The position numbers and the translations under genes were made by a program. 59,865 nucleotides of DNA from a virus (Duplodnaviria; Caudoviricetes), in IMG/VR virus record IMGVR_UViG_3300034196_000123, positions 1-59,865 of that record, one strand, 5' to 3'. The notes beneath the pieces were generated by a model. That model saw only the letters and a list, made by a program, of their open reading frames with translations, did not search any database and had not been told where the DNA came from. Below are positions 6,961 through 59,865 of this stretch, in pieces; the first letter of the stretch is position 1, and the number at the start of each line of letters is the position of its first letter.

Positions 6961-7884
6961 ATGCCGTACATCTACCCGCCCGCCCAGGGCACCCTCACCG
7001 GCGATGTCTACTCCGCCAGCCGGTTCCTGGAGCAGCCCACGCTCGTGCAGCGTGCGCTCCGCTCGATGACCGCGCAGCGGTTCATCGCCGACGCATTGCT
7101 CGCCGGCCGCGTCCAGGCCAGCGGCGGCGGCATCCTCTACGAGGTCTCCGAGGGCCTCTACACCTCCCGCACGCCGGAGGGTGTGGCCCCGGGGTCGAAG
7201 TACCCGCAGGCCACCGCCACCACCGGTGCGGCCGCGCTCGCGGCGGTCACCAAGTGGGGCCAGGCGATCCCGATCACCGACGAAGAGATCTCCCGGGCGC
7301 CGGGGATCGACACGGCCCGCAAGGCGCTGCTGAAGCTGGTCAACCAGCTCGTCAAGACCATCGACGGGATCTTCCTCGCGGCGCTCGGCGCGGCGATCAC
7401 GCAGACCCAGGCGGTGAACGGCACCGCGTGGAACGGCGCGACCCCGCAGATGCTGCTCGACATCAACCTGGCCAAGGCGAAGATCATCACGCTGAACCAG
7501 GGGTACGACCCCGACACGATCGTCCTCGACGACATCCGGTACGCCGAGGTCACATCCAACAAGGACCTGCTGGCCGGCCTGACGCGCGAGCAGATGTCCG
7601 CACCGACCGCCTCCGGAGAGATCGTGAAGCTCTCGGCGTGCCGGATCCTGCCGACCCCGAACCTCCCCGCCGGGGTCAACGCCATGGTCGTCGACTCCCA
7701 GATGCTCGGCTCGGTCGGCTACGAACGGATCCAGAGCCCCGGCTACCAGGGCGACCCGGCGAACGGGGTCGAGTCGAAGCTCATCCGCAAGGACGACGAG
7801 GACCGGTGGCTCATCCAGGGCCGTCGTCCCGTCGTGCCCGTCGTCCAGGAGCCGGGCGCCGGCTGCGTCATCACCGGCACCTGA
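6961..7884 (+). CDS. Major capsid protein
   Basis: 307 aa; EGVAPGSKYP, KWGQAIPITDE, GYDPDTIVL; position in head cluster; followed by terminator. Confidence 0.9.
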   Translation: MPYIYPPAQGTLTGDVYSASRFLEQPTLVQRALRSMTAQRFIADALLAGRVQASGGGILYEVSEGLYTSRTPEGVAPGSKYPQATATTGAAALAAVTKWGQAIPITDEEISRAPGIDTARKALLKLVNQLVKTIDGIFLAALGAAITQTQAVNGTAWNGATPQMLLDINLAKAKIITLNQGYDPDTIVLDDIRYAEVTSNKDLLAGLTREQMSAPTASGEIVKLSACRILPTPNLPAGVNAMVVDSQMLGSVGYERIQSPGYQGDPANGVESKLIRKDDEDRWLIQGRRPVVPVVQEPGAGCVITGT

Positions 7885-16846: not shown

Positions 16847-19765
16847 GTGGCTGCCAGCCCGCTGGCGCAGGCGATCGTCCGGGTCCGTGGTGACGGGTCG
16901 ATGCTGCGCGGCGACATCTCGAAGTCCGCCGGTGCAGCGGCCCGGCAGGCCGGGGCGGCGGCCGGTAAGGACTTCGGGCGGACGATGTCGGAGTCGGCGC
17001 AGAAGGCCCTGAACGCCCGCAAGGCCAGCGTCGACCTGGAGATCGTCAAGGCGAAGCAGAAGATCGAGGAACTGCGCGGCACCGCCCGGAAGATCGACGA
17101 CGACAAGCACAAGCTGGACCTGGACATCGCCACAGCCCGGGCGCGGATCGACGAGATGTACCGCCGCGGCGGTGGCGTCCTCACCATGAAGGCGCAGGCC
17201 GAGGTCAACCAGGCAGAGGCGAACCTGGCGCGCCTGGAACGGGCCAGGGAACGCCTGGAGGACGGCACCATCCTGCTGCGGTCGCAGGCCGAGACCGCGG
17301 CCACGCAGGCGCGCCTGGACGCCCTGGAGGCGAAGCGCCGGGACCTCGAGCGGCCGGTGACGATCCCGGTCGGTGCGAACACGGCGGGCGCGGACCGCAA
17401 CCTCGACGAGACGGACCGGAAGAAGCGGTCCGTCGGGCAGTCACAGACCTTCCGGATCGAAGCTGATCCAGGGCCGTCGATCGGGCGGCTCACCGCCCTG
17501 ATGTCCATCATCGCCGTGCTGATCCCCCTGGCGCTCGCCGCGGCCGGTGCGGTCGCGGGGATCGGTGCCGTTGGCCTCGTCGGGTTCGCGGCGACCGCGG
17601 CCGGCTTCAACGGCGTCGGCGACGCCGTGTCGGCCATGGGAAAGAAGGCCGCCGCCGGCGGGTCGCAGGTCAAGGTGTCGGCGTCCGCGGTGCGGGCCGC
17701 GGCTGCGTCCGTGAAGACGGCCCAGCAGGACTACGCCCACGCCCTCCAAGACGTCGCCGTCGCGGCCAGGGAGGCCGCCAGATCGCAGCTGGACGTCGCG
17801 GCCGCCCAAGCCGACGTGGCTCGGGCGGAGCGCGCCGTGTCGGCCGCGCTCAAGGATCAGGCCAGAGCTACCCGCGATGCCCAGGACGCCCAGGCCGACC
17901 TCAACGCCGCCTACCGCGAGGCCAGCCGGAACCTGCGTGACCTGCAGCTGCAGAGCGAAGACATGGCGCTCGCGCAGGAAGACGCGGCCCTGTCCGTGGC
18001 CGAAGCGCAAGAGCGGTACCAGATCGTCCTGAACGACCCCACGGCCACGGCGAACGAGATCAGAAGAGCTGATCTGTCCGTCCGCATCGCGGAGCAGCGC
18101 ACCAAGAGCGTCGCCGCCCAGGCCGACGACCTGGCCTCGAAGAAGGCCGACGCGGACGCCAAGGGCGTCCAGAACGCCGACGTCGTGGTCGCGGCTCAAC
18201 GGCGCGTCGAAGATTCACAGGCCGCCGTCGAACAAGCGACCCAGCGCGTCGCCGACGCGCAGGACGCCGTCGGACAAGCGATCTTGCGCGTGCAAGATGC
18301 CCAGGACCGCGCCTCCGATGCGGCGATGCGCCTGCAACGCCAGCAGGAGGCGGTGGCCAACAGCCTCGACCGGATCGCCGAGGCGAGGACCAGGCTCGAC
18401 GAGGCCAAGCACCCCGAGCAGTCCAGCAGCGGTGGAGGTGCCGCGGACCCCGTCGCCGAGGCGATGGGCAAGTTGGGGCCGAAGGGCCAAGAGTTCGCGG
18501 CGTTCCTGCGCGGCTTCATCGACGGCCCCCTGAAGGACTTGAGGCTCGCCGGGCAGGAGGCGTTCCTCCCCGAGATCCAGAAGGGGCTTGTCGGGATCAA
18601 GCCGGCGATGAAGGACGCCGAGGGGCCGTTCCGCGACTTCTCGAAGACCTTCGGGCAGGGCATCGCCGGCCTGATGACGGCGTTCGCTCCGCTCGCGAAG
18701 CCGTTCCTCGAGTTCGCGAACCAGGCGTTGAAGGGCCTGGCGCCGTTGCAGCCGGCCCTGAAGCAGTTCGCGGACTCGTTGGGGTGGGTGTTCCGGGAGC
18801 TGGCGAACTCGGGTGTCGCGAAGTCGCTGATGGAGGGCCTGTCGGCCATCATCGCGGCGCTGCTGCCCCTGTTCCCACCGTTGATCGACGCCGCCGTGAA
18901 GATCATGGCGGCGATGGGGCCTGCGCTCGCGCAGGTCGTGGACGCGCTGACGCAGTCGATCATCCTGCTGCTGCCCGAGCTGGTGCAGATGGCGCCGCTG
19001 TTCGCCGACTTCCTGATCAAGCTGATCCCTCTGATCCCGTCGATCTTCCAGCTGGTCGACGCGATCCTGAAGCTGATCATCCAGACGTACCCGATCACCA
19101 CGCTGTTCACCGAGCTGGCCATTCTGATCATCACGAAGGTGATCGGGGCGTTCACGTCGATCGCCGACTACATCCAGCGGACGATCATCCCGGTCTGGAA
19201 CTCGTTCAACTCGGCCGCCGACACCGTCCACAAGGCGATCGTGTCCGGCATCGAGAAGGTCGGGCAGTTCGTCGTCGACCTGCCGAAGAAGGCCGCTGGG
19301 CTGCTCAAGATGTTCGACCCCCTGGCCTCCGGCGCGAAGTCCGCGTTCAACGCGGTCTCGGACGCCTGGAACAGCTCCATCGGGTCGTTCTCGTTCAGCC
19401 TGCCCGGGTGGCTGCCCGGGATCGGCGGATCCAACTTCTCCCTGCCGCGGATGCCGCGTCTGGCCGCCGGTGGCATCGCGACGTCCCCGACGGTCGCGAT
19501 GATCGCCGAGGCGGGGGAGGCCGAGGCGGTGGCGCCGCTCAGCAAGCTGCGCAGCATGCTCGACGCCAGCGTGCGGTTCGCGATGCGCAGCGAAGCCCCG
19601 GCCACCGGCGCGCCGGCCGCCGACACCGGCCGCACGGCCGCGGCGATGGACGAGCAGACCAGCCTGCTGCGCCGCCTCGTCGAGCTCCTGGAGCGGAGCA
19701 CCGACGTCCGGCTCGACGGTCGCGTCGTCGGCGCGATCGATGGCCTCTACGGACGGGGGTACTGA
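16847..19765 (+). CDS. Tape measure protein
   Basis: 972 aa, Ala-rich coiled coil, Pro/Leu repeats, PRLAAGGI...AMIAEAGEAEAVAPL C-terminal motif. Confidence 0.92.
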   Translation: MAASPLAQAIVRVRGDGSMLRGDISKSAGAAARQAGAAAGKDFGRTMSESAQKALNARKASVDLEIVKAKQKIEELRGTARKIDDDKHKLDLDIATARARIDEMYRRGGGVLTMKAQAEVNQAEANLARLERARERLEDGTILLRSQAETAATQARLDALEAKRRDLERPVTIPVGANTAGADRNLDETDRKKRSVGQSQTFRIEADPGPSIGRLTALMSIIAVLIPLALAAAGAVAGIGAVGLVGFAATAAGFNGVGDAVSAMGKKAAAGGSQVKVSASAVRAAAASVKTAQQDYAHALQDVAVAAREAARSQLDVAAAQADVARAERAVSAALKDQARATRDAQDAQADLNAAYREASRNLRDLQLQSEDMALAQEDAALSVAEAQERYQIVLNDPTATANEIRRADLSVRIAEQRTKSVAAQADDLASKKADADAKGVQNADVVVAAQRRVEDSQAAVEQATQRVADAQDAVGQAILRVQDAQDRASDAAMRLQRQQEAVANSLDRIAEARTRLDEAKHPEQSSSGGGAADPVAEAMGKLGPKGQEFAAFLRGFIDGPLKDLRLAGQEAFLPEIQKGLVGIKPAMKDAEGPFRDFSKTFGQGIAGLMTAFAPLAKPFLEFANQALKGLAPLQPALKQFADSLGWVFRELANSGVAKSLMEGLSAIIAALLPLFPPLIDAAVKIMAAMGPALAQVVDALTQSIILLLPELVQMAPLFADFLIKLIPLIPSIFQLVDAILKLIIQTYPITTLFTELAILIITKVIGAFTSIADYIQRTIIPVWNSFNSAADTVHKAIVSGIEKVGQFVVDLPKKAAGLLKMFDPLASGAKSAFNAVSDAWNSSIGSFSFSLPGWLPGIGGSNFSLPRMPRLAAGGIATSPTVAMIAEAGEAEAVAPLSKLRSMLDASVRFAMRSEAPATGAPAADTGRTAAAMDEQTSLLRRLVELLERSTDVRLDGRVVGAIDGLYGRGY

Positions 19766-27156: not shown

Positions 27157-27897
27157 CTACTCCGCGGCGATCTGGTAGACGAGCTGGTACCGCTCCGACG
27201 ACATGACCATCCGATTCACCTCGACCGCCCGGTCGCCGGCGTACGCCACGCGGGTCACCTCGAGGACGGGGTAGGCGGCGGGCAGCTGCAGGTGCTCGGC
27301 CTCCCGCGGCCGCGGTGGTCGCGCCGCCACCAGCTCGCTGTAGTGGGTGAGCGTCCACCCGGCCTCTTCGACGCGGGCGTACATCCCGCCGGGGCCGGTG
27401 TCGGTCTGCTCCAGGTGCGCGGCTTCGGCGACGTCCACGGGGATCCAGCTGGTGGCCAGCTGCACGACCTCGGCGTCGGCGCGCATGATGCGCTCGCGGA
27501 CGGCGACGTCGGTGCCGGGCGCGACGTCCAGGAGCGGCGCGACGTCGACCGGGACCGTCTGCCGGAACGTCTTCACGGTGACCGCCGGCGCCCAGCCGCC
27601 GGTCCGGGCGTCGCTCATGAACGTTCCGCGGCCGGCTGCGCGCTCGGCGGCGCTGAGGCGGTTGCGGGCGAGCCTGGTGACGGGCTTGCGCTCGCTGACG
27701 AACCAGCCGCGGCCGGACACGCTGAACACGAGGCCTTCGGCGCGCAGTTGGTCGACGGCGTTCTGGATCGTGTTCCTCGCGACCCCGAACCGGGCCATGA
27801 GCTGGGTGCCGGACGGCAGGGGAGTGCCGGGACCGGCGTCGGTGACCTCGCGGCGGAGGGTGTCGGCGATCTCGACCCATGGGCGGCGCACTGGCAT
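27157..27897 (-). CDS. GntR/HutC-family regulator with UTRA domain (KorSA/TraR-like)
   Basis: PGTPLPS..QLMARFGVARNTIQNAVDQLRAEGLV...GRGWFV wHTH; UTRA motifs QLATSWIP, RAVEV, ERYQLVY. Confidence 0.9.
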   Translation of the reverse strand: MPVRRPWVEIADTLRREVTDAGPGTPLPSGTQLMARFGVARNTIQNAVDQLRAEGLVFSVSGRGWFVSERKPVTRLARNRLSAAERAAGRGTFMSDARTGGWAPAVTVKTFRQTVPVDVAPLLDVAPGTDVAVRERIMRADAEVVQLATSWIPVDVAEAAHLEQTDTGPGGMYARVEEAGWTLTHYSELVAARPPRPREAEHLQLPAAYPVLEVTRVAYAGDRAVEVNRMVMSSERYQLVYQIAAE

Positions 27898-27912
27898 GCC
27901 GCCATGCTACGC

Positions 27913-27978
27913 GACCTACTTGCATAGGTCACCGGGCTGACCTACGGTGATCCTGCGTGAGCTACTTGCATAGCTCAC
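27913..27978. promoter_or_regulatory. Twin palindromic operators (core CTACTTGCATAG)
   Basis: GACCTA-CTTGCA-TAGGTC (27913-27930) and GTGAGCTA-CTTGCA-TAGCTCAC (27957-27978) between divergent genes. Confidence 0.8.
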
Positions 27979-28049
27979 CCTCGATCGGCGGAGCGCGCCG
28001 TCCACCCCGAGTCGCGGCGCGCTCCGCCCACCACGGCCAGGGGGGCCTC

Positions 28050-28457
28050 ATGTCGCTACGCCGCATCCAGGTGCTGGTCGTCCCTGCCGAACGTGAGCTG
28101 CCTGCCCGCCTGGTCCACATCGACGACAGTGCCGCCGCGATCAGCGATGCGATCGGCGTTGACCGGTTCGATGACCTGCTCGTCGGCTCGACGCCGCTGG
28201 GCATGTACACGATCTACGGGAGCGGCTCGGGTGGCCCGCCGCTCAACCTCGCTGCCGGGGCGCTCGTCGGCGCCCTGGGGCACTCCGGCCCCGACGTCCG
28301 GCGCCGGATGCGCGGCGACGTCCTGGTGTCCGGGCTGGACGCCTCGGGCATCGTCGACATCGACGTGCCGGCGTCCGTGCTGGCCGCCGCGGCGTCGGCG
28401 GGGGTGCCGATCGTCGCCGGTGGGGTGCTGCTGCGCCCGGCCGACCCGTCTGCCTGA
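28050..28457 (+). CDS. DUF3846-like protein
   Basis: VLVVPAE..PARLV.I, PLNLAA, GDVLVSG pattern. Confidence 0.55.
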   Translation: MSLRRIQVLVVPAERELPARLVHIDDSAAAISDAIGVDRFDDLLVGSTPLGMYTIYGSGSGGPPLNLAAGALVGALGHSGPDVRRRMRGDVLVSGLDASGIVDIDVPASVLAAAASAGVPIVAGGVLLRPADPSA

Positions 28458-28496
28458 GGGTCGGGGGAGGGCCCGAGAGCACGACATAACGGGCCT

Positions 28497-28524
28497 ACCT
28501 GACATAATCATAATTATCGGTGCA
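28497..28524 (-). other. dif: dif-like XerC/XerD recombination site
   Basis: Minus strand TGCACCGATAA-TTATGA-TTATGTCAGGT: 11-6-11 layout with ATAA/TTAT inner arms like E. coli dif (GGTGCGCATAA-TGTATA-TTATGTTAAAT). Confidence 0.75.
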
Positions 28525-28964
28525 GAACGGACGATCTTCAGGGGGAGCCGGAGCGGCTGTCCACAGCCCCTTCTGGTCCCCTTGGATCAGGGCCGGCCGT
28601 GCGCCACGATGGGCGGGCCGGCCCGGGCCGGTCACCCTCGGCGCCGCCTCCCCGCCCACCTGGCGGGGCGTGGCGCCCTCGGAAGCACAGCCCGGACCGG
28701 TCCCGTGCCAGACTGATCGTCGATCGCGCTGCGCGAGGTGCAGGGCAGCGCAGGGCCTGGTGGCGATGCGACACGTCACGGCAGCGCGGTCTGCGGGTCC
28801 CGGTGCATGGGAGCAGCAACGTGCGCGCCGTTCGAGTCGGAGGTCGGGACCCGCGTCCCCTCCCGGTCGTCGTGCCTGGAGCGACGAACCGCCCCGGGCG
28901 GCTACCCGGGGCGGTTCTTCCAGCGCTGACGAAGCTGGGGAGAGATCCATCGTAGCGGCGCCGG

Positions 28965-29212
28965 CGGCAGCTGCTGGCAGCCGTTGTGGCAGCCGTGCGG
29001 TGGGACGCTGTGGTTCGCTGTGGTACTCCCCCACGAGTCGATCATGCGTTGACCAGGCGTTTGGCACGCTGCGCTACATGGTGGGACGGGTTGCCCGGGC
29101 TCTTTTAATCCGCGGGCTGAGGGTTCGATCCCCTCGGGGCCCACCGCTTGACCTGGCAGTATGCGCCCCTGCATAGATCATTTAGGGGGGTGTGGCAGCC
29201 GTTCTGGCAGCT
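28965..29212. repeat. Integrase arm-type repeats flanking attP core
   Basis: TGGCAGCCGTT(G/C)TGGCAGC at 28975-28993 and 29193-29211, on both sides of the core. Confidence 0.65.
29102..29145 (+). other. attP: attP core identical in form to the 3' half of tRNA-Lys(UUU)
   Basis: CTTTTAA anticodon loop, GAGGG-TTCGATC-CCCTC T arm, GGGGCCCACC acceptor end; 5' half of tRNA absent; near integrase. Confidence 0.85.
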
Positions 29213-29262
29213 CCTGGGACGATCTACCGTCGAACTCCACCGCTGTAGTTCGGCCGCGTTCA

Positions 29263-29278
29263 TCGAACATGCGTTCGA
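29263..29278. promoter_or_regulatory. LexA (SOS) box, actinobacterial type
   Basis: TCGAAC-ATGC-GTTCGA, 19 bp upstream of ATG 29298. Confidence 0.85.
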
Positions 29279-29297
29279 CGGCTGCCATCCTGGGGTC

Positions 29298-29621
29298 ATG
29301 GCGGGAGGCGCGGACCGACGAGCGGGACAGGACGGCCCCGTCCTCGATCGGCTCGGCCTGAGGGTACCCGCCGCCCCCGAGTCGGCGCCGGCTGCCCTGC
29401 CGGACGGCGGCGCGCACCGGCAGGAGTGGCCCACCCTCAAGCACGTCTGGGTCGCCGACGCCCCCGAGGTCCCCGGCCGCTGGCCGGGCATCCTCATGGG
29501 CTGGGCCCGGGACGACCGCGGCTGGCTCGGACGTGTCTCCCTGGCCGCCGAGGGCCGTGAGGGCATCGTCACGATGACCCTGTGGGTCCGCGCCGAGCAC
29601 CTGGTCCCCCTCGACCAGTGA
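29298..29621 (+). CDS. Small Trp-rich hypothetical protein, probably SOS-inducible
   Basis: KHVWV...PGILMGW.R...GWLGRV...WVRAEHLVP, SH3-like beta pattern; directly behind LexA box. Confidence 0.7.
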   Translation: MAGGADRRAGQDGPVLDRLGLRVPAAPESAPAALPDGGAHRQEWPTLKHVWVADAPEVPGRWPGILMGWARDDRGWLGRVSLAAEGREGIVTMTLWVRAEHLVPLDQ

Positions 29622-29673
29622 CCGCCCTGGTGGCGCAGGCCTGCCCGCCCCAAGTCTGGGCGGGCCCGCGCCA

Positions 29674-31014
29674 TCAGGCCGGGACCAGCGCCGCGGCGGG
29701 CGGGTCCTCGCCGTCATCCTCGCCGCGCTCGCCGGCGCCCTCGCCGGCGGTCTGGCCGGCATCCGGCGTGGGCGGGACGCCGTCCGGCCACAGCAGCTCG
29801 TCGACCCGCTTGGCGTTGGTGTCGAGCATCCCCGGGAGCAGGTGCTGGTACGTGTCCTGCGTCAGCTGGGTCTGGGAGTGCCCCAGCTGCTCCTTGACCT
29901 CGCGCACGTCGGCCTTCAGGAACAGCAGCAGCGACGCGGTGGTGTGCCGCAGGTCGTGGACCCGCAGGTCCGACTCGATCGGGTCATCGACGACGCTGCC
30001 GTCGCGCATCGTCCACGACTTCCCGGTACCCGAGGTCCGGACGCCCGCCTTGACGGCGAGGTCACGCAGGTTCTGCCAGTCCCGACGGGCGTCCAGCGGG
30101 TAACCACCGCGCTGGGCGAACACCAGGTCGGCGATCTCCTCCCAGCCGGGCGGCTGCCAGCCCTTCCAGTTCGCGCCGTCCTCGAGTTTCGCTACGCGCT
30201 GGGCGAGCCGGAGCCGCTTCAGGATGGGCAGCAGGTGCGCGGGGATGGGCAGGCGCCGGATCCCGGCGGTGGACTTCGGCGGAGTCAGCACGAGGTTCTG
30301 CCCACGGGGGCGGCCTCGTAGGCGGGTCAGTGACCGCCGGACCGTCAGGACGCCGGCGTCCAGGTCGACGTCGTCCCACAGCAGGCCGAGAACCTCGCCC
30401 TGGCGCAGGCCGAGGGCGATGGCGATGCCCCACCGGGCGTGCGCCGCGTCGTCGGTGCAGGCGCCCAGCAGGCGACGGCACTCCTCCACGGTCAGTGGCA
30501 TGACTTCCTCCCGGACGGCCGCGGGTGGCTGGACGAGCTTGGCGACGTTCATGCTGACTCGCTGCCGCTGCCAGGCGACCTGCAGGGCGCGGGCGAGGAT
30601 GCGGTGGCACTGCAGGATGGACGTCTCGGACAGCCCCGCCTCGCGCATCGTCGTGTGCAGCTGCTCGATGTGCTCGGGGGTCAGCTTGATCAGCCGGTGC
30701 CGTCCCACGTTCGGGATGATCCAGTTCCGGAGGTAGGAGCGGTACCCGTCGATGGTGCGGGGCCGGACCTTCGTCGGGGCGATGTTGTCGATCCAGTGGG
30801 TGAGCCACTGCTCGACGGTCGTCTTCGGGTCGTGGAGGGTCCCCCCGCGGGCCAGGACCGACTGTGCTTCCTGCAGCTTGGCCTTGGCCTCGGCGCGGTT
30901 CTTGGCCCGCAGGTACTTGCGGATCGGCTTGCCGTCGGCTGTCCACCCGACGTGGATCTGGACGCGCCATCCGGCGCCGCTCTTGTAGATCGAGCCTTCA
31001 CCCGGGGATCGCAT
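29674..31014 (-). CDS. int: Tyrosine integrase
   Basis: GLRQGE, PPKS, HDLRH, LGHS, TQDTY catalytic R-K-H-R-H-Y residues; N-terminal arm-binding GEGSIY. Confidence 0.95.
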   Translation of the reverse strand: MRSPGEGSIYKSGAGWRVQIHVGWTADGKPIRKYLRAKNRAEAKAKLQEAQSVLARGGTLHDPKTTVEQWLTHWIDNIAPTKVRPRTIDGYRSYLRNWIIPNVGRHRLIKLTPEHIEQLHTTMREAGLSETSILQCHRILARALQVAWQRQRVSMNVAKLVQPPAAVREEVMPLTVEECRRLLGACTDDAAHARWGIAIALGLRQGEVLGLLWDDVDLDAGVLTVRRSLTRLRGRPRGQNLVLTPPKSTAGIRRLPIPAHLLPILKRLRLAQRVAKLEDGANWKGWQPPGWEEIADLVFAQRGGYPLDARRDWQNLRDLAVKAGVRTSGTGKSWTMRDGSVVDDPIESDLRVHDLRHTTASLLLFLKADVREVKEQLGHSQTQLTQDTYQHLLPGMLDTNAKRVDELLWPDGVPPTPDAGQTAGEGAGERGEDDGEDPPAAALVPA

Positions 31015-31469: not shown

Positions 31470-31910
31470 TCAGGAACTGGTGGGCCCCTCGGTGCTGGTG
31501 CGTGGTGATGTCGCCGCGCGCAGCCGCGCGAGCTCCAGGAGTGCGTCGACCAGGCTGAGGACCAGTTGCCGGTGTGGCTCCAGGAGGCCGTCGGTCCCGG
31601 GTGGCAGTAGCGCGACGAACAGGCTGTCGACGTCACCGGTGTCCAGGCCGCGTTGCTTCGCGATCGTGTTCCCGCACGCGAGGTAGACGGTCCACCAGTG
31701 GACCCGCAGTGCCTGCGCGATCCCCATGATCGTGTCCGTGTCCGGAGCGGAGTCGAACGGGTCGTCGCTGGTGGCGAGTTGCTGCCAGCGTGGGGCACTC
31801 GGCTTCCCGCCGGCGGCGCGGGTGAGGTCGGCATATGTGCGTTCCCTCCCCTCTTGGACCCGCTGGGCGGTGATCAGCTCACGGATCGTGATGCCGTGTT
31901 TGGGTGCCAC
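31470..31910 (-). CDS. Immunity repressor (XRE-like HTH)
   Basis: RTYADL..AAGG.PS..RWQQLA...PDTDTIMGIAQAL; divergent from cro, upstream of int. Confidence 0.75.
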   Translation of the reverse strand: MAPKHGITIRELITAQRVQEGRERTYADLTRAAGGKPSAPRWQQLATSDDPFDSAPDTDTIMGIAQALRVHWWTVYLACGNTIAKQRGLDTGDVDSLFVALLPPGTDGLLEPHRQLVLSLVDALLELARLRAATSPRTSTEGPTSS

Positions 31911-32914: not shown

Positions 32915-34141
32915 ATGACGACCAGTATCACCCCACCGGCCCGGCTGGGCAGCACGCTGCTGGACCTGCGCGAGTACCTGACCAGCACCGGCGCGCCGCC
33001 GTTCGTCGGCCGCAGCGTCGAGTCCGACTCCTACCACGTCTGGTACGTCGACCCCCGCGACCCGTCGACCCGGTACCGCAGCATCACCAACATCCTCGAC
33101 GAGACCGAGTCCACCCCGTGGAAGGCCCCCTGGTACGCCAAGATGGCCGCCCGGTTCGCCATCCAGCACTGGGCCGACCTCGCGGACATGCTCGCCGCCG
33201 GCCTCAACGACGAGGCCCTGCGCTGGGTCCGCGACAACGCCGAGCGGGACCGGTCGACCGCCGCGGACTGCGGGACGTGGCTGCACGACGTCCTGGAGGC
33301 CCTGCTCCTGGACCGGCCCATCCCCGACCCCCCGACCGACCTGATCGGCCGCCACCTGGACGACGAGCCCATCGACCAGGAGCGCCTCGACCGGTGGGCC
33401 GACGGCCTGCTCGCGTGGATCGAGGACTTCCGCCCGACCCCGCTGATGGCCGAGGCCACCGTGGCGTCGCCCGCCGAGGGCGTGGCCGGGCGCCTGGACT
33501 TCGGCGGGGACTTCGCTCACTACGGCGCCCTGGCCGTCGACCTCAAGTCCGGGCGGACGATCGCGGAGAAGGTGTACTGCCAGCTGTGGGCGTACACCCG
33601 CCTCGTCACGCAGGTGTGGCTGCCCGACGGTCGCCGCCTCGCGCTGCCCCGGTTCACCGGCGCCGCGGTGCTGCGCCTGCGCCCCTCGATGCACAGGGGC
33701 TACAAGTTCATGCCCGTCCCGGAGGCCGCGCTGGCCGCGGGCGGGCAGGAGTTCATGCACCGATGGCACGCCCTGCGCAAGCGCACCGCGCTGCGCGAGG
33801 ACCACCCGTTCATGCGGACCGCCGCCTACCCGCCTCAGTGGCGCCCCGACGGCAGCTGGACGCCGCCGCGGACCATCCCGATGGTCGAGGACGTGGACGG
33901 GACGCAGTTCCCCCGCGGCCTGCTCACCGCCGCCGGCCTGCTGTGGCTGGAGGACCTGACCCACTTCCGCGCGGAGGACCTGCTGTCCGTCCCCGAGCGG
34001 AAGACCAAGCGCGACCCCGCCCCCGCGAAGGGCATCAAGGGCCTCGGCGCGAAGAAGCTGGACGCCGTCCGGGCCGCGCTCGCCCTGTACGGGCTGGCCC
34101 TGGCCGGCGAGACCCTCCCGGCCGAGAGCGAGGTGGCGTGA
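32915..34141 (+). CDS. PD-(D/E)xK exonuclease (Cas4/RecE-like) with C-terminal RNAP alpha-CTD-like HhH domain
   Basis: SITNIL, GTWLH, EATV, AGRLD, VDLKSG, QLWAY; C-terminus IKGLGAKKLDAVRAAL. Confidence 0.8.
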   Translation: MTTSITPPARLGSTLLDLREYLTSTGAPPFVGRSVESDSYHVWYVDPRDPSTRYRSITNILDETESTPWKAPWYAKMAARFAIQHWADLADMLAAGLNDEALRWVRDNAERDRSTAADCGTWLHDVLEALLLDRPIPDPPTDLIGRHLDDEPIDQERLDRWADGLLAWIEDFRPTPLMAEATVASPAEGVAGRLDFGGDFAHYGALAVDLKSGRTIAEKVYCQLWAYTRLVTQVWLPDGRRLALPRFTGAAVLRLRPSMHRGYKFMPVPEAALAAGGQEFMHRWHALRKRTALREDHPFMRTAAYPPQWRPDGSWTPPRTIPMVEDVDGTQFPRGLLTAAGLLWLEDLTHFRAEDLLSVPERKTKRDPAPAKGIKGLGAKKLDAVRAALALYGLALAGETLPAESEVA

Positions 34142-35229
34142 TGCCGATCCTCGACCTGCAGGCCCGCACCGCCCGCATCGGGCAGATCCGCATGGGCACC
34201 AGCGTGGCGATCCCCGGGAAGAAGGGTCGCCGTCCCGTGAAGCTGTCGACCCTGCGCTTCACCTCCGCCAGCGAGAGGGCCATCACGGCCGTCGCCCAGC
34301 AGTACGGCGGGGAGCCGAAGCCGTGGACGGAGAACGCCCCGAGCCCGGGGCTGTGGGAGGTCATCACCGAGGCCCCCGAGGTCGCCGTGGCCTGCCCCCC
34401 GGGCGAGCAGCTGATGACGGCGAACTACGAGCTGTGGGAGGACCGCCGGCGGCTGCGGCTGTGCGACAGCCAGACCGACGGCGTGTCCGGCGGCCCGTGC
34501 GTGTGCAAGCCCGAGGCCCGGGCGTGCAAGCCCTACACGCGCCTGTCGGTGATGCTCCCCGACGTCCCCGGCCTGGGCGTGTGGGTCCTCAACTCGACCG
34601 GCCTGAACGCGGCCGTCGGGATGATGGGCGTCGCGCAGCAGCTGCAGCAGTACGCCACCCGCGGGCAGATCCTGCCCGCGATGCTGCGCCTGGAGCACCG
34701 CGTCAGCGTCGACGACCGCACCGGGGAGACCCTGCGGTTCGTCGTGCCCGTCCTGGAGCTGACGATGACGCTGCGGGAGATCGCCGGTGGCGCGGCGTCG
34801 GAGCAGACCCTGTACCTGCCGCCCCCGCCGCCGCGGCTCCTGGCCCTCACCAGGAGCGCCGAGCCGCCCGCCGAGGGCGCGGTGCCCGCCGAACCGGCCC
34901 GAGCCACCACCACGGCGCCGGCGCCCGCCACGGCGCGCCCCCCGGCGCCGCAGCAGGCGGACCGCCCGGCGCCGACGCAGGGCCCGGCGAAGGACCCCGC
35001 CCGGCCGATCGATACCGGCAGCGTCCAGCCCCCGAGCGACGCGCAGGGCATGGTCCCGATCATCACCGCGTGCGAGTCCCGCGCCGAGCTCGCGCAGCGG
35101 TTCGCGCCGTACGCGGAGAAGGCCGGGTGGATGGACGACTTCGTGACCCACCCGTACAGCGACGAGATGTGGGTGCTGCTCGAAGTGTTCCGAGCCCGCG
35201 ACGCCGCCCTCACCGACGCCGAGAGCTGA
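34141..35229 (+). CDS. phiC31 gp3-like recombination/replication protein (RDF family)
   Basis: MPILDLQ..IGQIRMG, RPVKLSTLRFTS, CD..., CKPYTRLSVMLPDVPGLGVW, FVVPVL. Confidence 0.8.
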   Translation: MPILDLQARTARIGQIRMGTSVAIPGKKGRRPVKLSTLRFTSASERAITAVAQQYGGEPKPWTENAPSPGLWEVITEAPEVAVACPPGEQLMTANYELWEDRRRLRLCDSQTDGVSGGPCVCKPEARACKPYTRLSVMLPDVPGLGVWVLNSTGLNAAVGMMGVAQQLQQYATRGQILPAMLRLEHRVSVDDRTGETLRFVVPVLELTMTLREIAGGAASEQTLYLPPPPPRLLALTRSAEPPAEGAVPAEPARATTTAPAPATARPPAPQQADRPAPTQGPAKDPARPIDTGSVQPPSDAQGMVPIITACESRAELAQRFAPYAEKAGWMDDFVTHPYSDEMWVLLEVFRARDAALTDAES

Positions 35230-35909: not shown

Positions 35910-36971
35910 GTGAGCCTGGAGGCCCTGGCGTGGGCGTTCGCCCAGAACCCCGGGGACAGCACCCGCAAGCTGGTGCTCTTGGCCTACGCCGACGTCGCGC
36001 AACGGGACGGGCAGGCGTACCTGCTGACGGAGCAGGTCGCCGAGACGGCGCTGTGCGCGGGCCGGACCGCGGGTCGGCACATCACCGCGCTGATCGCCGA
36101 TGGGTACATGCGTGAGGGTGACCAGAGCCTGATCAGCGACAAGATCCCGCGACGGTTCCGGCCGATCGTGTACCAGCTCGCGATGTCCGATGAGCAGCGC
36201 GAGGCGTGGGCGGCGACGCCGGTGACCGGTCGGCGGGCCCTGATGGTGGCCGGCGGGGCTCGCGGTGCCGAGTGGACGAACCGGACGAAGTCGGGCGCGA
36301 CCGAGGATGGTGGGGCGCCACCGGTGGCGCCTCACTCGTCGGACGGTGGGGCGCCACTGGTGGCGCCCCACGAAAACCCTCCCGAACCGGACGGAAATGG
36401 ACACGATGGGGCGCCAAGTGGGGCGCCATCCGTGGCGCCCAAGAACCTAAGAACCAAAGAACCAAACCACCACCACCACCGCGACGACGCGAACGTCCAC
36501 GAACTGGTGGTGGTGGAAGCCCTCCCGGACCACCCCGACCCCGCTGCGATCGCCTCGCAGATCGTGGCGGCCCTCCCCCGCCCGATCGCCCGGCACATCC
36601 ACGGCCCGACCCTGCGCACCGAGGCCACCCGCCTCGCCGCCCTCGGCTGGACCCCCGAGCAGCTCGCCGCCTGGACCCGGGAGGCGAACTGGGCCGGCGC
36701 CGGCCCGGCGCTCGTCACGTCTCGGCTGCGCGGCATCGACGGCCCGCCCCTACCCGCCCCGGTCCGGGCGCCCGTCCAGCTGACCCGCCTGTGCCCCGAC
36801 TGCGTCGCCAGCGGCGCCCAGGAGCCCTCGACCATCCCGGTCGGGGCCGTCGCCTGCCCCGAGTGCTCCGAGGGCCACCAGCGCCTCGACAAGGCCCGCA
36901 AGGGCACCCTCCGGGCCGAGGCCGCCGCCGCTCGAGCTGCCCGGGTCGCGCAGGTTGCGCCCGCGACCTAG
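35910..36971 (+). CDS. Replication initiator (N-terminal wHTH, RepA/lambda O-like)
   Basis: MSLEALAWA...KLVLLAYAD N-terminus; internal iterons; CxxC..CxxC near C-terminus. Confidence 0.8.
   Translation: MSLEALAWAFAQNPGDSTRKLVLLAYADVAQRDGQAYLLTEQVAETALCAGRTAGRHITALIADGYMREGDQSLISDKIPRRFRPIVYQLAMSDEQREAWAATPVTGRRALMVAGGARGAEWTNRTKSGATEDGGAPPVAPHSSDGGAPLVAPHENPPEPDGNGHDGAPSGAPSVAPKNLRTKEPNHHHHRDDANVHELVVVEALPDHPDPAAIASQIVAALPRPIARHIHGPTLRTEATRLAALGWTPEQLAAWTREANWAGAGPALVTSRLRGIDGPPLPAPVRAPVQLTRLCPDCVASGAQEPSTIPVGAVACPECSEGHQRLDKARKGTLRAEAAAARAARVAQVAPAT
36311..36468. repeat. Origin-like iterons TGGGGCGCCA plus A-rich tract
   Basis: Direct copies at 36311, 36347, 36407, 36419; inverted copies at 36325 (variant), 36361, 36433 (variant); then AAGAACCTAAGAACCAAAGAACCAAACC. 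Confidence 0.75.
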
Positions 36972-49316: not shown

Positions 49317-49679
49317 GTCGCGCAGCGTACCTGCGCGACCCACCTGCGCGGGCCCCTGTGCGGCCACCTGTGCGCCGCACAGCCCTGCGCGGGCCTCCCG
49401 ACTGTGCGCCGCACAGCCCTACCCTGTGCGGCGCACAGCCGGGCGCACAGGGGTTGCGGGTTGACAACCCCCCGACTGTGCGCGCACAGTGGATCCGCTA
49501 GCCCAGCTAGCGACCACGTGTAGCACGACGAGCGACGCGCAGCGTCCGCTCAGCCCCGGCGCACAGCCCGCCGCACATCCACCCCCGCGCACAGCCCGCA
49601 CACCTGGAGCCCCCGTGCCCAACCCCGCACACCCGGGCGCACAGCCGCCCGCACAGCCCGACGCGCAGCCCGCGCAGCC
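49114..49679. repeat. GCACAGCC 8-mer array 1 (clt/TRS-like)
   Basis: Exact copies at 49377, 49411, 49433, 49561, 49589, 49639, 49651 (+) and 49114, 49133 (-), plus many CTGTGCG/GCGCAGCC variants. Confidence 0.8.
49461..49512 (+). promoter_or_regulatory. Transfer-module promoter with 17-bp operator
   Basis: TTGACA-N18-CACAGT then CGCTAG-CCCAG-CTAGCG (49496-49512). Confidence 0.65.
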
Positions 49680-49998
49680 CGTGAACGGCGCCGCGCAGGC
49701 CGCCCGCCACGCCGCCGTCGCCCACGCGCACGCCGCGACCCCCGCCCGGCTGCCCTGGTACGCCGGACCCCGCGTCCGCGCCATCACCGCCGCGGCCGCC
49801 GCGTTCCTGGCCCTCGACCTAGGCGTCATGGGCTCGACCCTGACGTCCACCGGCCTGCTCCGCCTGGTCCTGCTCACCGCGATCGCGTTCGTCGTCGTCC
49901 GCGTCACCTGGCGCCCGTACCTCGCCGCCCTCCGCTCGTCCCTGCACGTCACCCGCCCCACCGCCACCTCGAGCTCCACCGGCGACCGGGACGCCTGA
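49615..49998 (+). CDS. 2-TM membrane protein (Spd-like)
   Basis: TGGAG RBS; two hydrophobic helices; first gene after promoter. Confidence 0.65.
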   Translation: MPNPAHPGAQPPAQPDAQPAQPVNGAAQAARHAAVAHAHAATPARLPWYAGPRVRAITAAAAAFLALDLGVMGSTLTSTGLLRLVLLTAIAFVVVRVTWRPYLAALRSSLHVTRPTATSSSTGDRDA

Positions 49999-51831: not shown

Positions 51832-53769
51832 ATGACCCGGACCCACGACCGGCACGCCGACGTCGAGTCGCGCCGTCAGGCCCGCCGGTGGCGGCGCCTG
51901 GAGCGTCGCCTCGACGGCCGGCCCTGGCACCAGCGTCTGTGGTGGGTCCGGGGCCCCGTCCTGCTGGCCCGCGCCGTCCGGCGGATCGTCGCCCTGGTCG
52001 TGTCCCTGCCGGGTCGGCGCCGGCGGTTCGGCTGGCCCCTGCTGGCCGCTGTCGCGGCCGCGGTGCTCGTCGCGCCGCTGCCGTGGGCGCTCGCCGCCGT
52101 CCTCGCGGTGGCCGCGGCGTGGCTGCGGGAACGCCGCGGCGGACCTCGCCGGGTCGTGTCCGACCGGGAGGCGTGGCTGTGGGCCGGCGCGCTCGCCGTC
52201 GTGGCCGTCGCGCAGCAGCTGCTCGACGGCCGCCCCTGGTGGGCCGCCCCGGCCGCGACCATCCCGACGTCCGTCGCGTGGATCTGGGGGAGGCGTACCC
52301 GCCGCCCGGGCCGCTTCGAGCAGGCGTGGGCGGAGCACGTCGCCGGCGAGCAGGATTGGGCCCGGTCGACGGTGCGGGACGTCCGGGTGAAAGTCGACCG
52401 GAAGGGATACCCCGACGGCACGTTCACCCTGGTCGTCGCGAAGGGGCAGACCGCGAAGGACGTTGCCACGAAGGGCGACGAGCTGGCCTCCCACCTGGCC
52501 GACGCCTTCCCGGTGCTCACCGCTGGGTCACTGATGGTGTCCCACGGGCACGGCGACCCGATCCGGCAGGCCCGCGTCGCGATCGCGAACCCGCGCCGTC
52601 AGGCGGAGCCCCGGTACTGGCGGGAGCCGTCCCTCGACGAGCGGACCGGGCTCTACCAGATCGGCGACACGATGCACGACGGGTCCCGGGCCCAGATGTG
52701 GCAGCACGCCGGCGGCGTCAACACCGTCGCCGTCGGCGGCCCAGGGAAGGGCAAGGGCGGCTTCACCGTCGTCACGGACGTCGAGGCTGCGATCAGCCGC
52801 CACGTGGTCCTGATCGTGCTGGACGGGAAGCGGGGCGCCGGTGTGCCCGCGCTGCGCTACGGAGCGTCCCTGTACGCCCGGACCCCCGGGCAGTGGATCG
52901 TCGCGTGGGACGCCGCCATGACGATCATGCGGATGCGCGCCGACGAGTACGGCGAGGCAGGCAAGTCGCTGTGGTCCCCGCAGTCCGACCCGCTCATCAA
53001 GGTCACGTGCGACGAGTGGCGGTACATCCACCGTGCCTGGCCGCAGATGCGCGAGGACGCCGTCTGGTGGACCGGGCAGACCAGAAGCTACGGCGGGCAC
53101 CTGCACCTCAACCTGCACCGCGGCGACGGCGACGGCTACGGCGACACCGAGATCAGAAGCAACATGTACGCGAACGGTCAGGCGTGGATCGGTCCGCAGG
53201 GCGACCTGTCCGCGGAGAACTGCGCCGTCCAGTCCTGGGGCGTCAAGCCCGCGACCCTGCCCCCGTACCCCGGGTGGGGCGACCTCTGCCAGACGATCAA
53301 CGGGGACGTCGGCTCCGCGGTCCGCGCGAAGAACCTGTGGCTCCCCACGAACGCCGAGGTCGCCGAGTTCGGTGTCCCCGCCCCCCACGGCACCGCCGAC
53401 GACATCATCCGGGAGCACGCCGTGTTCCCGTCCCTGCCGCCGGCGATGCAGGCCGTCCTCGACACCGCCCGGGAGGCGATCGAGTCCGGCCGCGCCGACC
53501 AGCCCGAAGCGGTCGAGGAAGCCCGGGAGCGGGCCGCCGCGACCCAGGGCCGCCCCGAGACCGTGGACGCCCTGATCCTCGCCGCGCTCGCCAACGCCCC
53601 CGACCAGGCCGCCGGCGCCACCGACCTGGCGAAGGCCATCGGCCGTGACCGCGCCTACGTGCAGGAGCGCCTCACCGTGCTCCGCGACACCGGGCGCGTC
53701 CTGCAGGAGGGCCCCCGCCGCCCGTACCGCCTACCCGCCCCCGCCCAGGAACTGGAGCCCGCCTCGTGA
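51832..53769 (+). CDS. traB: TraB/FtsK-SpoIIIE-like membrane DNA translocase
   Basis: GAGGAGG RBS; N-terminal TM helices; Walker A VGGPGKGKG, LDGKRG, Walker B IKVTCDE, Arg-finger region TRSYG, IRSN; C-terminal winged HTH (ATDLAKAIG..RAYV..RL..L..TGRV...YRL). Confidence 0.75.
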   Translation: MTRTHDRHADVESRRQARRWRRLERRLDGRPWHQRLWWVRGPVLLARAVRRIVALVVSLPGRRRRFGWPLLAAVAAAVLVAPLPWALAAVLAVAAAWLRERRGGPRRVVSDREAWLWAGALAVVAVAQQLLDGRPWWAAPAATIPTSVAWIWGRRTRRPGRFEQAWAEHVAGEQDWARSTVRDVRVKVDRKGYPDGTFTLVVAKGQTAKDVATKGDELASHLADAFPVLTAGSLMVSHGHGDPIRQARVAIANPRRQAEPRYWREPSLDERTGLYQIGDTMHDGSRAQMWQHAGGVNTVAVGGPGKGKGGFTVVTDVEAAISRHVVLIVLDGKRGAGVPALRYGASLYARTPGQWIVAWDAAMTIMRMRADEYGEAGKSLWSPQSDPLIKVTCDEWRYIHRAWPQMREDAVWWTGQTRSYGGHLHLNLHRGDGDGYGDTEIRSNMYANGQAWIGPQGDLSAENCAVQSWGVKPATLPPYPGWGDLCQTINGDVGSAVRAKNLWLPTNAEVAEFGVPAPHGTADDIIREHAVFPSLPPAMQAVLDTAREAIESGRADQPEAVEEARERAAATQGRPETVDALILAALANAPDQAAGATDLAKAIGRDRAYVQERLTVLRDTGRVLQEGPRRPYRLPAPAQELEPAS

Positions 53770-54599
53770 CCCGCCTCCGTGCCCACCTCGACCGGGGCCG
53801 CGGCATCTGCTACCTCGTCATGCTCATCGCAGGCGGGATCTCGATCTACGCGAACGTCGCGTTCCAGCTGATCGAGCGCGCCGAAGATGGGACGTGGATG
53901 CCCCGCCGCGACCCGCACCTCGACGCGATGGCGCTCGCCGCGGCCGCGCCGATCCTGCTGTGGGCGACCCTGGAGGTCCTGATCCGGGTGGAGGGCCGCG
54001 GCCTGGCCGCGTGGACGGTCCGGGTCGGCACCACCCTGGTCGCGGCCGCGTCGTTCATCGCGTCGTTCCAGAACATCCGGAACCTGCTGCTGTCGTTCGG
54101 GGACTCCCAGCTGACCGGCTGGACGTACCCGCTCGGCATCGACGGTGCACTCGTCGCGGCCGCCGCGGCGCTGTGGCAGATCCGCGTCACCGCCACCGCC
54201 GCGCCGGCCGCCGCGGTGGGGGAGGCCCCGGCCGTGGAGGCGCCGCGCTCGCCCGCTGAGCCGCGCCGCCGCAAGGCCGCCGAGCCGCTGCCCGCCGCGG
54301 CGCCCACCGAGGCGCCGACCACACCAGCGGTGGACCCGGCCCCGGTCCCCGCCGCGGCACCCACCCCGCCGCCGGCGCCCCGCCCCCGCGCAGTCACCGC
54401 CCGCCCGGCCGCCGCCGTCCAGCCCGACACCAACGCGCGGGACGCCCGGATCCGGGCCCTCGCCGCCGAAGGCAACGGCCGACCCACCGTCGCCCGGACC
54501 CTCCGCGACGAGGGCTACTCGATCTCCGACACCGACCTCGCGACGATGCTCCGCCAGTTGCGCGCCGAGACCGAGGGGAGGGCCGAGCAGCATGCCTGA
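53766..54599 (+). CDS. DUF2637 / SpdA-like membrane protein with C-terminal HTH
   Basis: ISIYANV, AAAPILL, ASFIASF.NI..L...GD......YPLGIDG.LV signature. Confidence 0.8.
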   Translation: MTRLRAHLDRGRGICYLVMLIAGGISIYANVAFQLIERAEDGTWMPRRDPHLDAMALAAAAPILLWATLEVLIRVEGRGLAAWTVRVGTTLVAAASFIASFQNIRNLLLSFGDSQLTGWTYPLGIDGALVAAAAALWQIRVTATAAPAAAVGEAPAVEAPRSPAEPRRRKAAEPLPAAAPTEAPTTPAVDPAPVPAAAPTPPPAPRPRAVTARPAAAVQPDTNARDARIRALAAEGNGRPTVARTLRDEGYSISDTDLATMLRQLRAETEGRAEQHA

Positions 54600-59693: not shown

Positions 59694-59865
59694 CGGGTGA
59701 TCTCCGATCGGGCGGGGGTTACGGTGGGCGGGCCGGGGGGGGGGGGGGGGGGGGGGCCCCCGGCCCCCCCCGTCCGGTGGAAGGCACTGGCAGCCAGGCC
59801 GGGGAAACCCGGCCACCAGTGCCCGTTCTCAGGCCCTGGGCACCAGCACCCAGGCGGAGTACGCG

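Follow-up and report, generated by a model that had tools for sequence, protein, structure and literature searches.

A dif-like site with a putative plasmid-type centre near the attachment site of a temperate actinobacterial siphophage

Introduction

What would a tailed phage with an integrase of its own gain from a site of the kind recognised by the host recombinases XerC and XerD? The question is raised by a 28-mer with the layout of a dif site in the middle of a virus record from IMG/VR, the whole of which (59,865 bp, linear, 81% complete by CheckV, 73% GC) was analysed here and is called the window. The phages published as using host XerCD are, as far as the partial texts of the sources go (PMC5357621 among them), small filamentous, microviral or double-jelly-roll (vibriophages) ones without an integrase, and full-text literature searches gave no account of such a site in any tailed actinophage, nor of dif-like sites on the plasmids of actinobacteria. 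The original prediction had placed three readings side by side, namely a phage circle in need of dimer resolution, a second route of integration, and DNA captured from the host terminus.

Results

The phage and its gene layout

The gene map of the window was drawn with a codon log-odds score, for which ten confident genes served as the training set. The window is a true tailed siphophage, temperate, of high-GC actinobacteria, and is laid out as follows.

2799-5093, Mu-type portal
6961-7884, major head protein
structural and lysis block of the window, head protease and amidase-like lysin
16847-19765, tape measure
mid-window, integration block: GntR/UTRA regulator, gene without known family, long spacer, tyrosine integrase
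31470-31910, minus strand, repressor
early genes beside this repressor: exonuclease, Gp3-like protein, O-like initiator, ParB-like protein, AAA ATPase
56841-58361, large terminase, near the right end

The earlier description of a phage with its own integrase was right, a 446-aa tyrosine integrase being present together with portal, protease, major head protein, tape measure and terminase. The ParB-like gene that had been claimed is also real, and is of a kind common in phages; ParA was not found in the window.

Several other features of the map were recorded. The Gp3-like protein (34138-35229; PF18897, 4.5e-32) is 'recombination directionality factor-like', yet the integrase of the window is a tyrosine and not a serine recombinase. 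About three copies of AAGAACCA lie inside the O-like initiator gene (36441-36472) and may be the iterons named in the original prediction. Units of 12 nt built on CGCACAGCC form arrays at 49340-49681 and 51278-51379, in and before the genes upstream of an FtsK-like gene; they may encode repeats in the protein or make up a binding array. Near the right end of the record, 22 G stand in a row (59735-59756). In the contigs of one public sequencing run, which is possibly the source, the stretch of the window was unchanged and the only joints had short sides of 21-38 nt; since none of them fell at the dif-like site or attP, this run is uninformative on recombination and on the free versus the integrated form.

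The dif-like site

The elements of the site are these.

28497..28524, minus strand, dif-like 28-mer, from the sequence, a core scan and a weight matrix
28524-28514, minus strand, XerC-type arm TGCACCGATAA
28513-28508, minus strand, centre TTATGA
28507-28497, minus strand, XerD-type arm TTATGTCAGGT
28480..28489, minus strand, extra XerD-arm-like half-site TTATGTCGTG, 7 nt past the XerD-type arm

On the plus strand, positions 28497-28524 read ACCTGACATAATCATAATTATCGGTGCA; on the minus strand the same letters read TGCACCGATAA-TTATGA-TTATGTCAGGT, that is, the two 11-bp arms and 6-bp centre of a Xer-type site in the 11-6-11 layout of dif. Both the layout and the coordinates of the original prediction proved exact. 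The pattern GATAA-N6-TTATGTCA, allowed up to two mismatches, matches the window once against 0.01 matches expected from 100 shuffles, although this pattern was partly that of a known dif and partly taken from the phage site itself and is hence not independent. For an independent test, 147 dif sites of actinobacteria were made into a weight matrix, by which the phage site scores 40.8 bits and the rest of the window nowhere exceeds 12 bits, while none of 20 shuffles of the window reached the 5-bit reporting floor. The alignment with actinobacterial dif sites that had been proposed as a check thus came out in favour of the site, whose arm core is that of the family dif described below and whose 18 specified dif arm bases are all intact. 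With 0.01 matches expected per window and nothing recovered from the shuffles, chance is effectively excluded as the origin of the 28-mer.

The attachment region and a promoter-like overlap

The site sits among phage genes, in a region composed as follows.

27157..27897, minus strand, GntR/UTRA regulator, left neighbour of the module (PF07702 1.6e-21, PF00392 6.6e-13)
28050..28457, plus strand, gene ending 40 bp before the site, 135 aa, or 166 aa from 27957 (codon-score map)
28883..28920, plus strand, 16-bp hairpin, 94% complementary, between site and attP (inverted repeat I14)
28975..28993, plus strand, putative left arm-type attP repeat TGGCAGCCGTTGTGGCAGC (direct repeat family D10)
29102..29147, plus strand, attP core, equal to the 3' 46 nt of tRNA-Lys(UUU), 1 mismatch to the Geodermatophilaceae gene
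29193..29211, plus strand, putative right arm-type attP repeat (family D10), 95% identical to 28975-28993
29674..31014, minus strand, tyrosine integrase, 446 aa, N-terminal SAM-like domain, not Xer-like (PF00589 1.6e-15, PF14659 1.8e-10)

The 28-mer falls within an 840-bp stretch without a credible gene (28458-29297), the largest gap in the codon-based gene map, and an Rfam scan of 28300-29700 gave nothing near threshold. The gene to its left belongs to no Pfam or PHROG family and has no relative in IMG/VR or among plasmids; the hairpin to its right was not called by the terminator scan and matches no Rfam family. Where the attP core aligns in a family genome (locus L274), with one mismatch over 46 nt, aragorn calls a tRNA-Lys(ttt), and no whole tRNA was found by ARAGORN anywhere in the window. 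The 19-base repeats on either side of the core are presumably the arm sites of the integrase. The attP is a normal unit of about 250 bp with its own core and arm repeats, and the dif-like site lies 450 bp outside this unit and 578 bp from the core, so that the earlier figure of about 580 bp from attP was right. A search of the phage with the XerD model at E<=1e-20 returned no match.

The region also holds another repeated motif, CTACTTGCATAG[GC]TCACC, which occurs twice, 46 bp apart, at 27910-27979 between the divergent GntR/UTRA gene and its neighbour, with a partial third copy, TGCATAGATCA, at 29170-29180 immediately beyond the right end of the attP core; a possible role for the motif is that of an operator with a further contact at attP.

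One could suppose that the AT-rich block is mainly a promoter, or an operator of a phage regulator, and that its likeness to dif is secondary. A sigma-70-like match does overlap the site on the plus strand (28481-28508: ACGACA, 16 nt, TG-extended CATAAT; one match against 0.1 expected), the hairpin lies 375 bp downstream, and the GntR/UTRA regulator adjoins. However, a promoter would not call for all 18 of the dif arm bases, set out as 11-6-11 and scoring 40.8 bits, a word resembling a -10 element is present in any dif site, and what is repeated between the GntR gene and its neighbour is another motif (families D1 and D9). We therefore regard this explanation of the block as very improbable. 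The overlap may account for a smaller feature. TTATGTC has only two copies in the window on both strands, at 28483 and 28501, the former within the extra half-site, which supplies the -35-like hexamer of the promoter-like match and has no counterpart next to the four related phage sites or the three plasmid sites that were checked. The promoter-like match may thus explain the extra half-site (28483-28489), but it cannot explain the match to dif.

The host family and its chromosomal dif

The host is probably in or near Geodermatophilaceae, as indicated by the tRNA match with its single mismatch and by the 73% GC. No close prophage was found in a search of 151 genomes of this family, where the matches to 16 kb of phage DNA were confined to parts of the integrase, the tRNA fragment and two short stretches. 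An exact 43-mer of the tRNA fragment had no match among species genomes; the tRNA differs by one base in the family. The tRNA-Lys fragment itself was matched in 142 of the 151 family genomes (139 of 148 with the unpublished genomes set aside). In many of them, G016, G049, G063, G068, G071, G074, G080 and G147 included, the 3' fragment of tRNA-Lys(UUU) is present on one contig in two or three copies, spaced 10-30 kb from each other. Integrated elements thus seem to accumulate at tRNA-Lys(UUU), a much-used attachment site of the family.

With up to one mismatch, CCGATAA-N6-TTATGTCA was found in 146 of the 151 genomes of this family (that of Geodermatophilus telluris), mostly in one copy, or in 144 of 148 when three genomes flagged as unpublished are left aside; a reversed control pattern was found in none of the 151. 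Given this near-universal and mostly single occurrence, the pattern is taken as the chromosomal dif of the family, and the 30 sites that were fetched and aligned give the consensus TGCGCCGATAA T[GC][CG]AC[AG] TTATGTCAACT. In a wider set with one genome per species, CCGATAA-N6-TTATGTCAGGT gave at least 120 rows with titles nearly all from Actinomycetota. The matches listed include Nocardioides, Microbacterium, Arthrobacter, Mycobacterium, Williamsia, Rhodococcus, Geodermatophilus and other genera, and 116 of the 121 sites among them fall in high-GC loci. In each of four family genomes the XerD model matches once at 319-332 bits and again, in a second paralogue, at 242-260 bits. Cognate XerC and XerD are accordingly present in these four genomes, and would be present in the phage's host if its assignment to the family is right.

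Second sites in the family genomes (L321-L325) are degenerate. One of them, GCCGCCGATAA CCATCG TTATGTAAGGC at 10001-10028 of L321, lies between genes on an 81-kb contig (contig 9 of family genome G022), and the same genome also holds a canonical dif elsewhere. A contig of an Amnibacterium MAG carries two inverted dif-like sites 20 bp apart, one with a canonical centre and the other with TGCCTC (L254, 6531-6606).

The centre of the site

When set against the family consensus, the phage site agrees at 19 of the 22 arm bases and at only 2 of the 6 centre bases, namely the first and the last. Positions 15-17 read AC[AG] in the 30 aligned family sites, and among the matches listed in the wider set position 15 is A in 108 of 116, position 16 is C in 92 of 116 and position 17 is A in 106 of 116; a chromosomal dif has A, then C or T, then A or G at these positions, where the phage has TGA. 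No centre ending in GA occurs among the family matches listed for the 151 genomes. Among the 116 high-GC sites listed, none of the 17 with a non-canonical centre lies on a contig longer than 250 kb, as opposed to 45 of the 99 with a canonical one (Fisher p=0.0002).

Plasmids present a different picture. PLSDB was searched with a 40-base query around the phage site, and the nine matches fetched are all dif-like sites of actinobacterial plasmids with near-identical centres. TTATGA itself is the centre in Arthrobacter pJ349-116 (circular, conjugative, 103 kb) and Corynebacterium pCgly1; TAATGA is found in Gordonia pCP86 and two Cryobacterium plasmids, TTGTGA in one Arthrobacter plasmid and one Rhodococcus ruber plasmid, TAGCGA in Gordonia pCP89 and TAGAGA in Rhodococcus fascians pA21d2. 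Five plasmid matches to a chromosomal-type query have TGTACC (twice, in Clavibacter pCCa and Gordonia p3), TTTACC, TGCACA and GCCACA. These sites were chosen by their similarity to a query, so that the centres ending in GA are selected for likeness to that of the phage, and they show that such centres exist on plasmids, not how frequent they are; 13 of the 14 fetched lie under no annotated feature. On these comparisons TTATGA is best classed as a plasmid-type centre and not a chromosomal one. As an observation apart from the phage, the plasmid loci (L462-L475) are intergenic, unannotated dif-like sites in actinobacterial plasmids of at least 10 genera, and their centre classes, ending in GA or ACC, differ from those of chromosomal dif.

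The exact 21-mer with TTATGA was also found in four metagenome contigs, none related to the window. They carry genes for a TIR effector, a weak relaxase match, VapB and a beta-lactamase-fold protein, which are diagnostic neither of a plasmid nor of a chromosome.

The centre also bears on the proposal that the phage had captured host terminus DNA. The arms are indeed the core of the host family's dif. However, TTATGA is in none of the family matches listed and in none of the 45 canonical sites on contigs longer than 250 kb, where no non-canonical centre occurs at all; the 28-mer is not a single copy at a chromosome terminus but sits between phage genes, and its surroundings match nothing in the 151 Geodermatophilaceae genomes. 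The proposal is therefore unsupported, and we hold an origin by terminus capture, or for that matter by chance, to be extremely improbable.

Relatives and distribution of the site

IMG/VR was scanned with the site pattern, and the four further high-GC viral records obtained (G154-G157), distant kin of the window, were thus found because they carry the site, a procedure that decayed copies would escape. G154 (64 kb) shares with the window an AAA ATPase (60% identical), a ParB-like protein (34%) and a portal (34%); G155 (60 kb) shares a tail-region protein (58%); G156 (56 kb, with direct terminal repeats) a terminase (43%); and G157 (14.7 kb) a terminase (37%) and a 645-aa protein (33%). Each has exactly one dif-like site, of 33.8-46.3 bits and between genes, that of G156 touching the last 11 nt of a weak ORF. 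Their centres are TGTACC, GCGACC, TGTGCA and TGTATA, three of the four being non-canonical, and TGTACC is common to one relative and the plasmid sites of Clavibacter pCCa and Gordonia p3. The proteins flanking the five phage sites are mutually unrelated, which leaves the 28-mer as the sole element that the five share, and an alignment of the five flanks showed no conserved block; a C-rich motif downstream of the sites did not hold up.

A profile from four terminases recovered 80 relatives at 27-41% identity, of which 48 had contigs of at least 11 kb and were searched. The dif core, with up to one mismatch, was found in 0 of the 48, including 18 with a GC of at least 0.62 at the terminase locus. 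As to the conservation in related phages that had been made a touchstone, one site is present in each of four distant relatives and none in the 48 terminase relatives, and within these samples the site is to be described as recurrent but sporadic, not lineage-wide. No close relative was found among GenBank phages, nor in IMG/VR by ORF166 or the terminase alone, and no relative of the integrase exceeds 35% identity. When three 40-mers were compared with GenBank phages by BLAST, a method that sees near-identical sites only, known Xer-using phages and a Leptospira LE1-like phage came up, and no isolated actinophage. The Leptospira phage, a tailed one, has the dif-like core GCTTCCGATAA TGTACA TTATGTCCAAA near position 86056 of KF114877.1 (L476), under no annotated feature.

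This distribution is what might be expected if the site were inert cargo that arrived beside attP with the DNA of a plasmid or integrative plasmid and has no present role. It is patchy, with none in the 48 terminase relatives; its position in the genome varies among the five phages and is near the integrase only in the window, where it would come to lie at the very end of the integrated prophage; and its centre is of the plasmid type. Foreign DNA tends to collect at the ends of integrated prophages. What speaks against inert cargo is that 18 out of 18 specified arm bases are intact in the window, that the flanks have no similarity to plasmids or to the 151 genomes, and that five unrelated contexts share the 28-mer alone, which suggests that the 28-mer itself is kept, although this point is weakened by the ascertainment of the sites with an exact pattern. 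We think it doubtful that the site is cargo of this sort.

Alternatively, host XerCD might join the phage circle to the chromosomal dif, in the manner of IMEX elements, or to a resident plasmid with the same centre, bringing about integration or cointegration. Both arms are intact, plasmids with the identical centre TTATGA exist, and tRNA-Lys is a crowded attachment site in the family, as the many genomes with two or three fragment copies indicate. Moreover, according to the part of PMC5357621 available, VGJ-phi, which integrates in double-stranded form, does so by a single dif-like site, and the centre of that site departs from dif1 at four bases close to the XerD side. In G155 and G156, which carry the site, neither a tyrosine integrase (PF00589) nor a large serine recombinase (PF07508) was detected, but their records are 80% and 78% complete by CheckV, and the integrase may simply be missing from them. 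Against the joining of the phage to another replicon stand the complete integrase and attP system of the window, where an IMEX would lack a recombinase of its own, and the centre, which has one matching base at each end with the family consensus, itself possibly not that of the true host. Nor did the 151 genomes, which contain no relative of the phage, show an integrated copy between dif and a dif-like site: where a genome has two listed matches, as seven do, these are on different contigs, and no dif-element-dif arrangement was seen. The second integration route that had been proposed thus fares weakly, with 2 of 6 centre bases shared and no genome with two sites on one contig among the listed matches. 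The joining of the phage by XerCD to host dif or to a plasmid we consider unlikely, on a level with inert cargo.

An FtsK/TraB-like candidate

The original prediction had also invoked a transfer protein of TraB type, for which two genes are of concern.

51832..53769, plus strand, 645-aa FtsK/TraB-like candidate (helices at the N-terminus, motif GGPGKGKG, HTH-like end at the C-terminus)
53766..54599, plus strand, DUF2637 protein downstream of the FtsK-like gene (PF10935 1.3e-05)

The 645-aa protein has no Pfam or PHROG match. Its atlas neighbours (0.96-0.97) are actinobacterial, and several of these rows combine PF01580 (FtsK_SpoIIIE) with HTH_IclR or MarR; its structure rows have TM values of 0.46-0.55, and its single-sequence fold, with a mean pLDDT of 40.8, was not used. 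The TraB-type label is thus a lead only, given by language-model and structure neighbours, which are actinobacterial FtsK/SpoIIIE proteins with a C-terminal HTH, and not by Pfam. In the relatives the site lies about 0.4 kb (G157), 1.1 kb (G156) and 3.2 kb (G154) downstream of a large P-loop gene, which is followed by a DUF2637 gene in G156 and G154, and the 645-aa protein may be linked to the site there. In the window 23 kb separate the FtsK-like gene from the dif-like site.

Host FtsK activates XerD at dif, as reported in the available portion of a 2026 bioRxiv preprint, which allows one to imagine a phage stand-in for it. In such a self-contained FtsK-dif module, a membrane-anchored phage translocase of FtsK/TraB type, with a winged helix at its C-terminal end, would replace host FtsK and switch on XerD at the phage site, recombination would become independent of cell division, and the site could also fuse the phage with plasmids sharing its centre. 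We look on this arrangement as distinctly improbable.

Discussion

The reading that we put first, tentatively and at somewhat less than an even chance, is that the 28-mer is a genuine plasmid-type Xer site at which host XerCD resolves multimers of the phage circle. It is ranked first since host-type arms combined with a private centre are what plasmids use to remain monomers without fusing with the chromosome. It draws on the site itself, the match of its arms to the host family's dif, the plasmid-type centre, the host enzymes and the non-coding setting. Host XerC would bind the arm TGCACCGATAA and host XerD the arm TTATGTCAGGT; two copies on one circle, that is, a dimer or multimer arising from replication after excision or in an episomal state, would bring the sites together, and XerC and XerD would swap strands across the 6-bp centre to give monomers, to the presumed benefit of the phage. 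The centre sets where strands are cut and exchanged, and at the VGJ-phi site the lost centre homology on the XerD side excludes XerD from the reaction, both according to the accessible part of PMC5357621. As TTATGA differs from the chromosomal centre, the phage site should not be able to pair with host dif and would pair productively with another copy of the phage; the private centre would also spare the integrated prophage from recombination with the terminus.

The weak point of multimer resolution is need. Why a phage that integrates and is packaged from concatemers should require dimer resolution is not obvious, and an episomal state would be that of a phage with integrase, attP and repressor, in which no ParA was found. 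The dif-like core and plasmid-type centre are what a plasmid multimer-resolution site would have, but such a site would also call for a stable extrachromosomal circle, and no accessory sequences like those of cer or psi were recognised. Of the three readings offered at the outset, the circle in need of dimer resolution is the best supported, having the centre type of plasmids and small contigs, and it has to be held together with the missing ParA and the complete set of integrase, attP and repressor.

Among known systems, ColE1 cer and pSC101 psi resemble the phage site in having a dif-like core off the chromosome, a non-chromosomal centre and, as would hold for the phage site, the host XerC and XerD as recombinases, but they depend on some 180 bp of accessory DNA to which PepA binds together with ArgR or ArcA (both points from the partial text of PMC5357621), the counterpart of which was not recognised here. 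Furthermore, cer and psi reside on plasmids, whereas the phage site is on a tailed phage with its own integrase and a host in Actinomycetota. The sites of the actinobacterial plasmids (pJ349-116, pCgly1, pCP86 and others) have the same arm core and a centre that is TTATGA or one base off (TAATGA, TTGTGA), and lie between genes with no function annotated; their replicons are plasmids, not phages, and position 4 of the XerC arm is mostly G in them and A in the phage. The chromosomal dif of Geodermatophilaceae and other Actinomycetota has the same 11-6-11 layout and shares 19 of 22 arm bases, but only 2 of 6 centre bases, with a site that is not on a chromosome.

P1 offers a precedent of another kind. 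Its Cre/lox system is a phage-borne site that resolves dimers of the circular prophage and can help to cyclise incoming DNA. P1 encodes its own recombinase, whereas in the phage of the window the recombinase would be the host's. A phage-borne dif-like site is also found in the IMEX phages CTX-phi, VGJ-phi and TLC-phi (PMC5357621, in part), and Xanthomonas phiLf2, with an annotated xerc/d site, and Microviridae were also among the matches of the 40-mers. The published IMEX phages are, as far as the excerpts of the sources extend, filamentous, microviral or double-jelly-roll, in contrast to a 60-kb siphophage with an integrase, a tRNA attP and a centre little like that of host dif.

For the dif-like sites of Actinomycetota, sampled here in 151 family genomes, at least 120 species-genome loci and 14 plasmids, the last bases of the centre form a simple sequence marker, ends in GA or ACC marking plasmids, phages and small contigs and ends in ACA or ACG being found on chromosomes. 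These classes suggest a testable rule by which replicons avoid cross-recombination. If the site works, temperate siphophages of Actinomycetota would use the chromosome-segregation machinery of their host as plasmids do, and a working site would bear on whether such phages spend time as circles.
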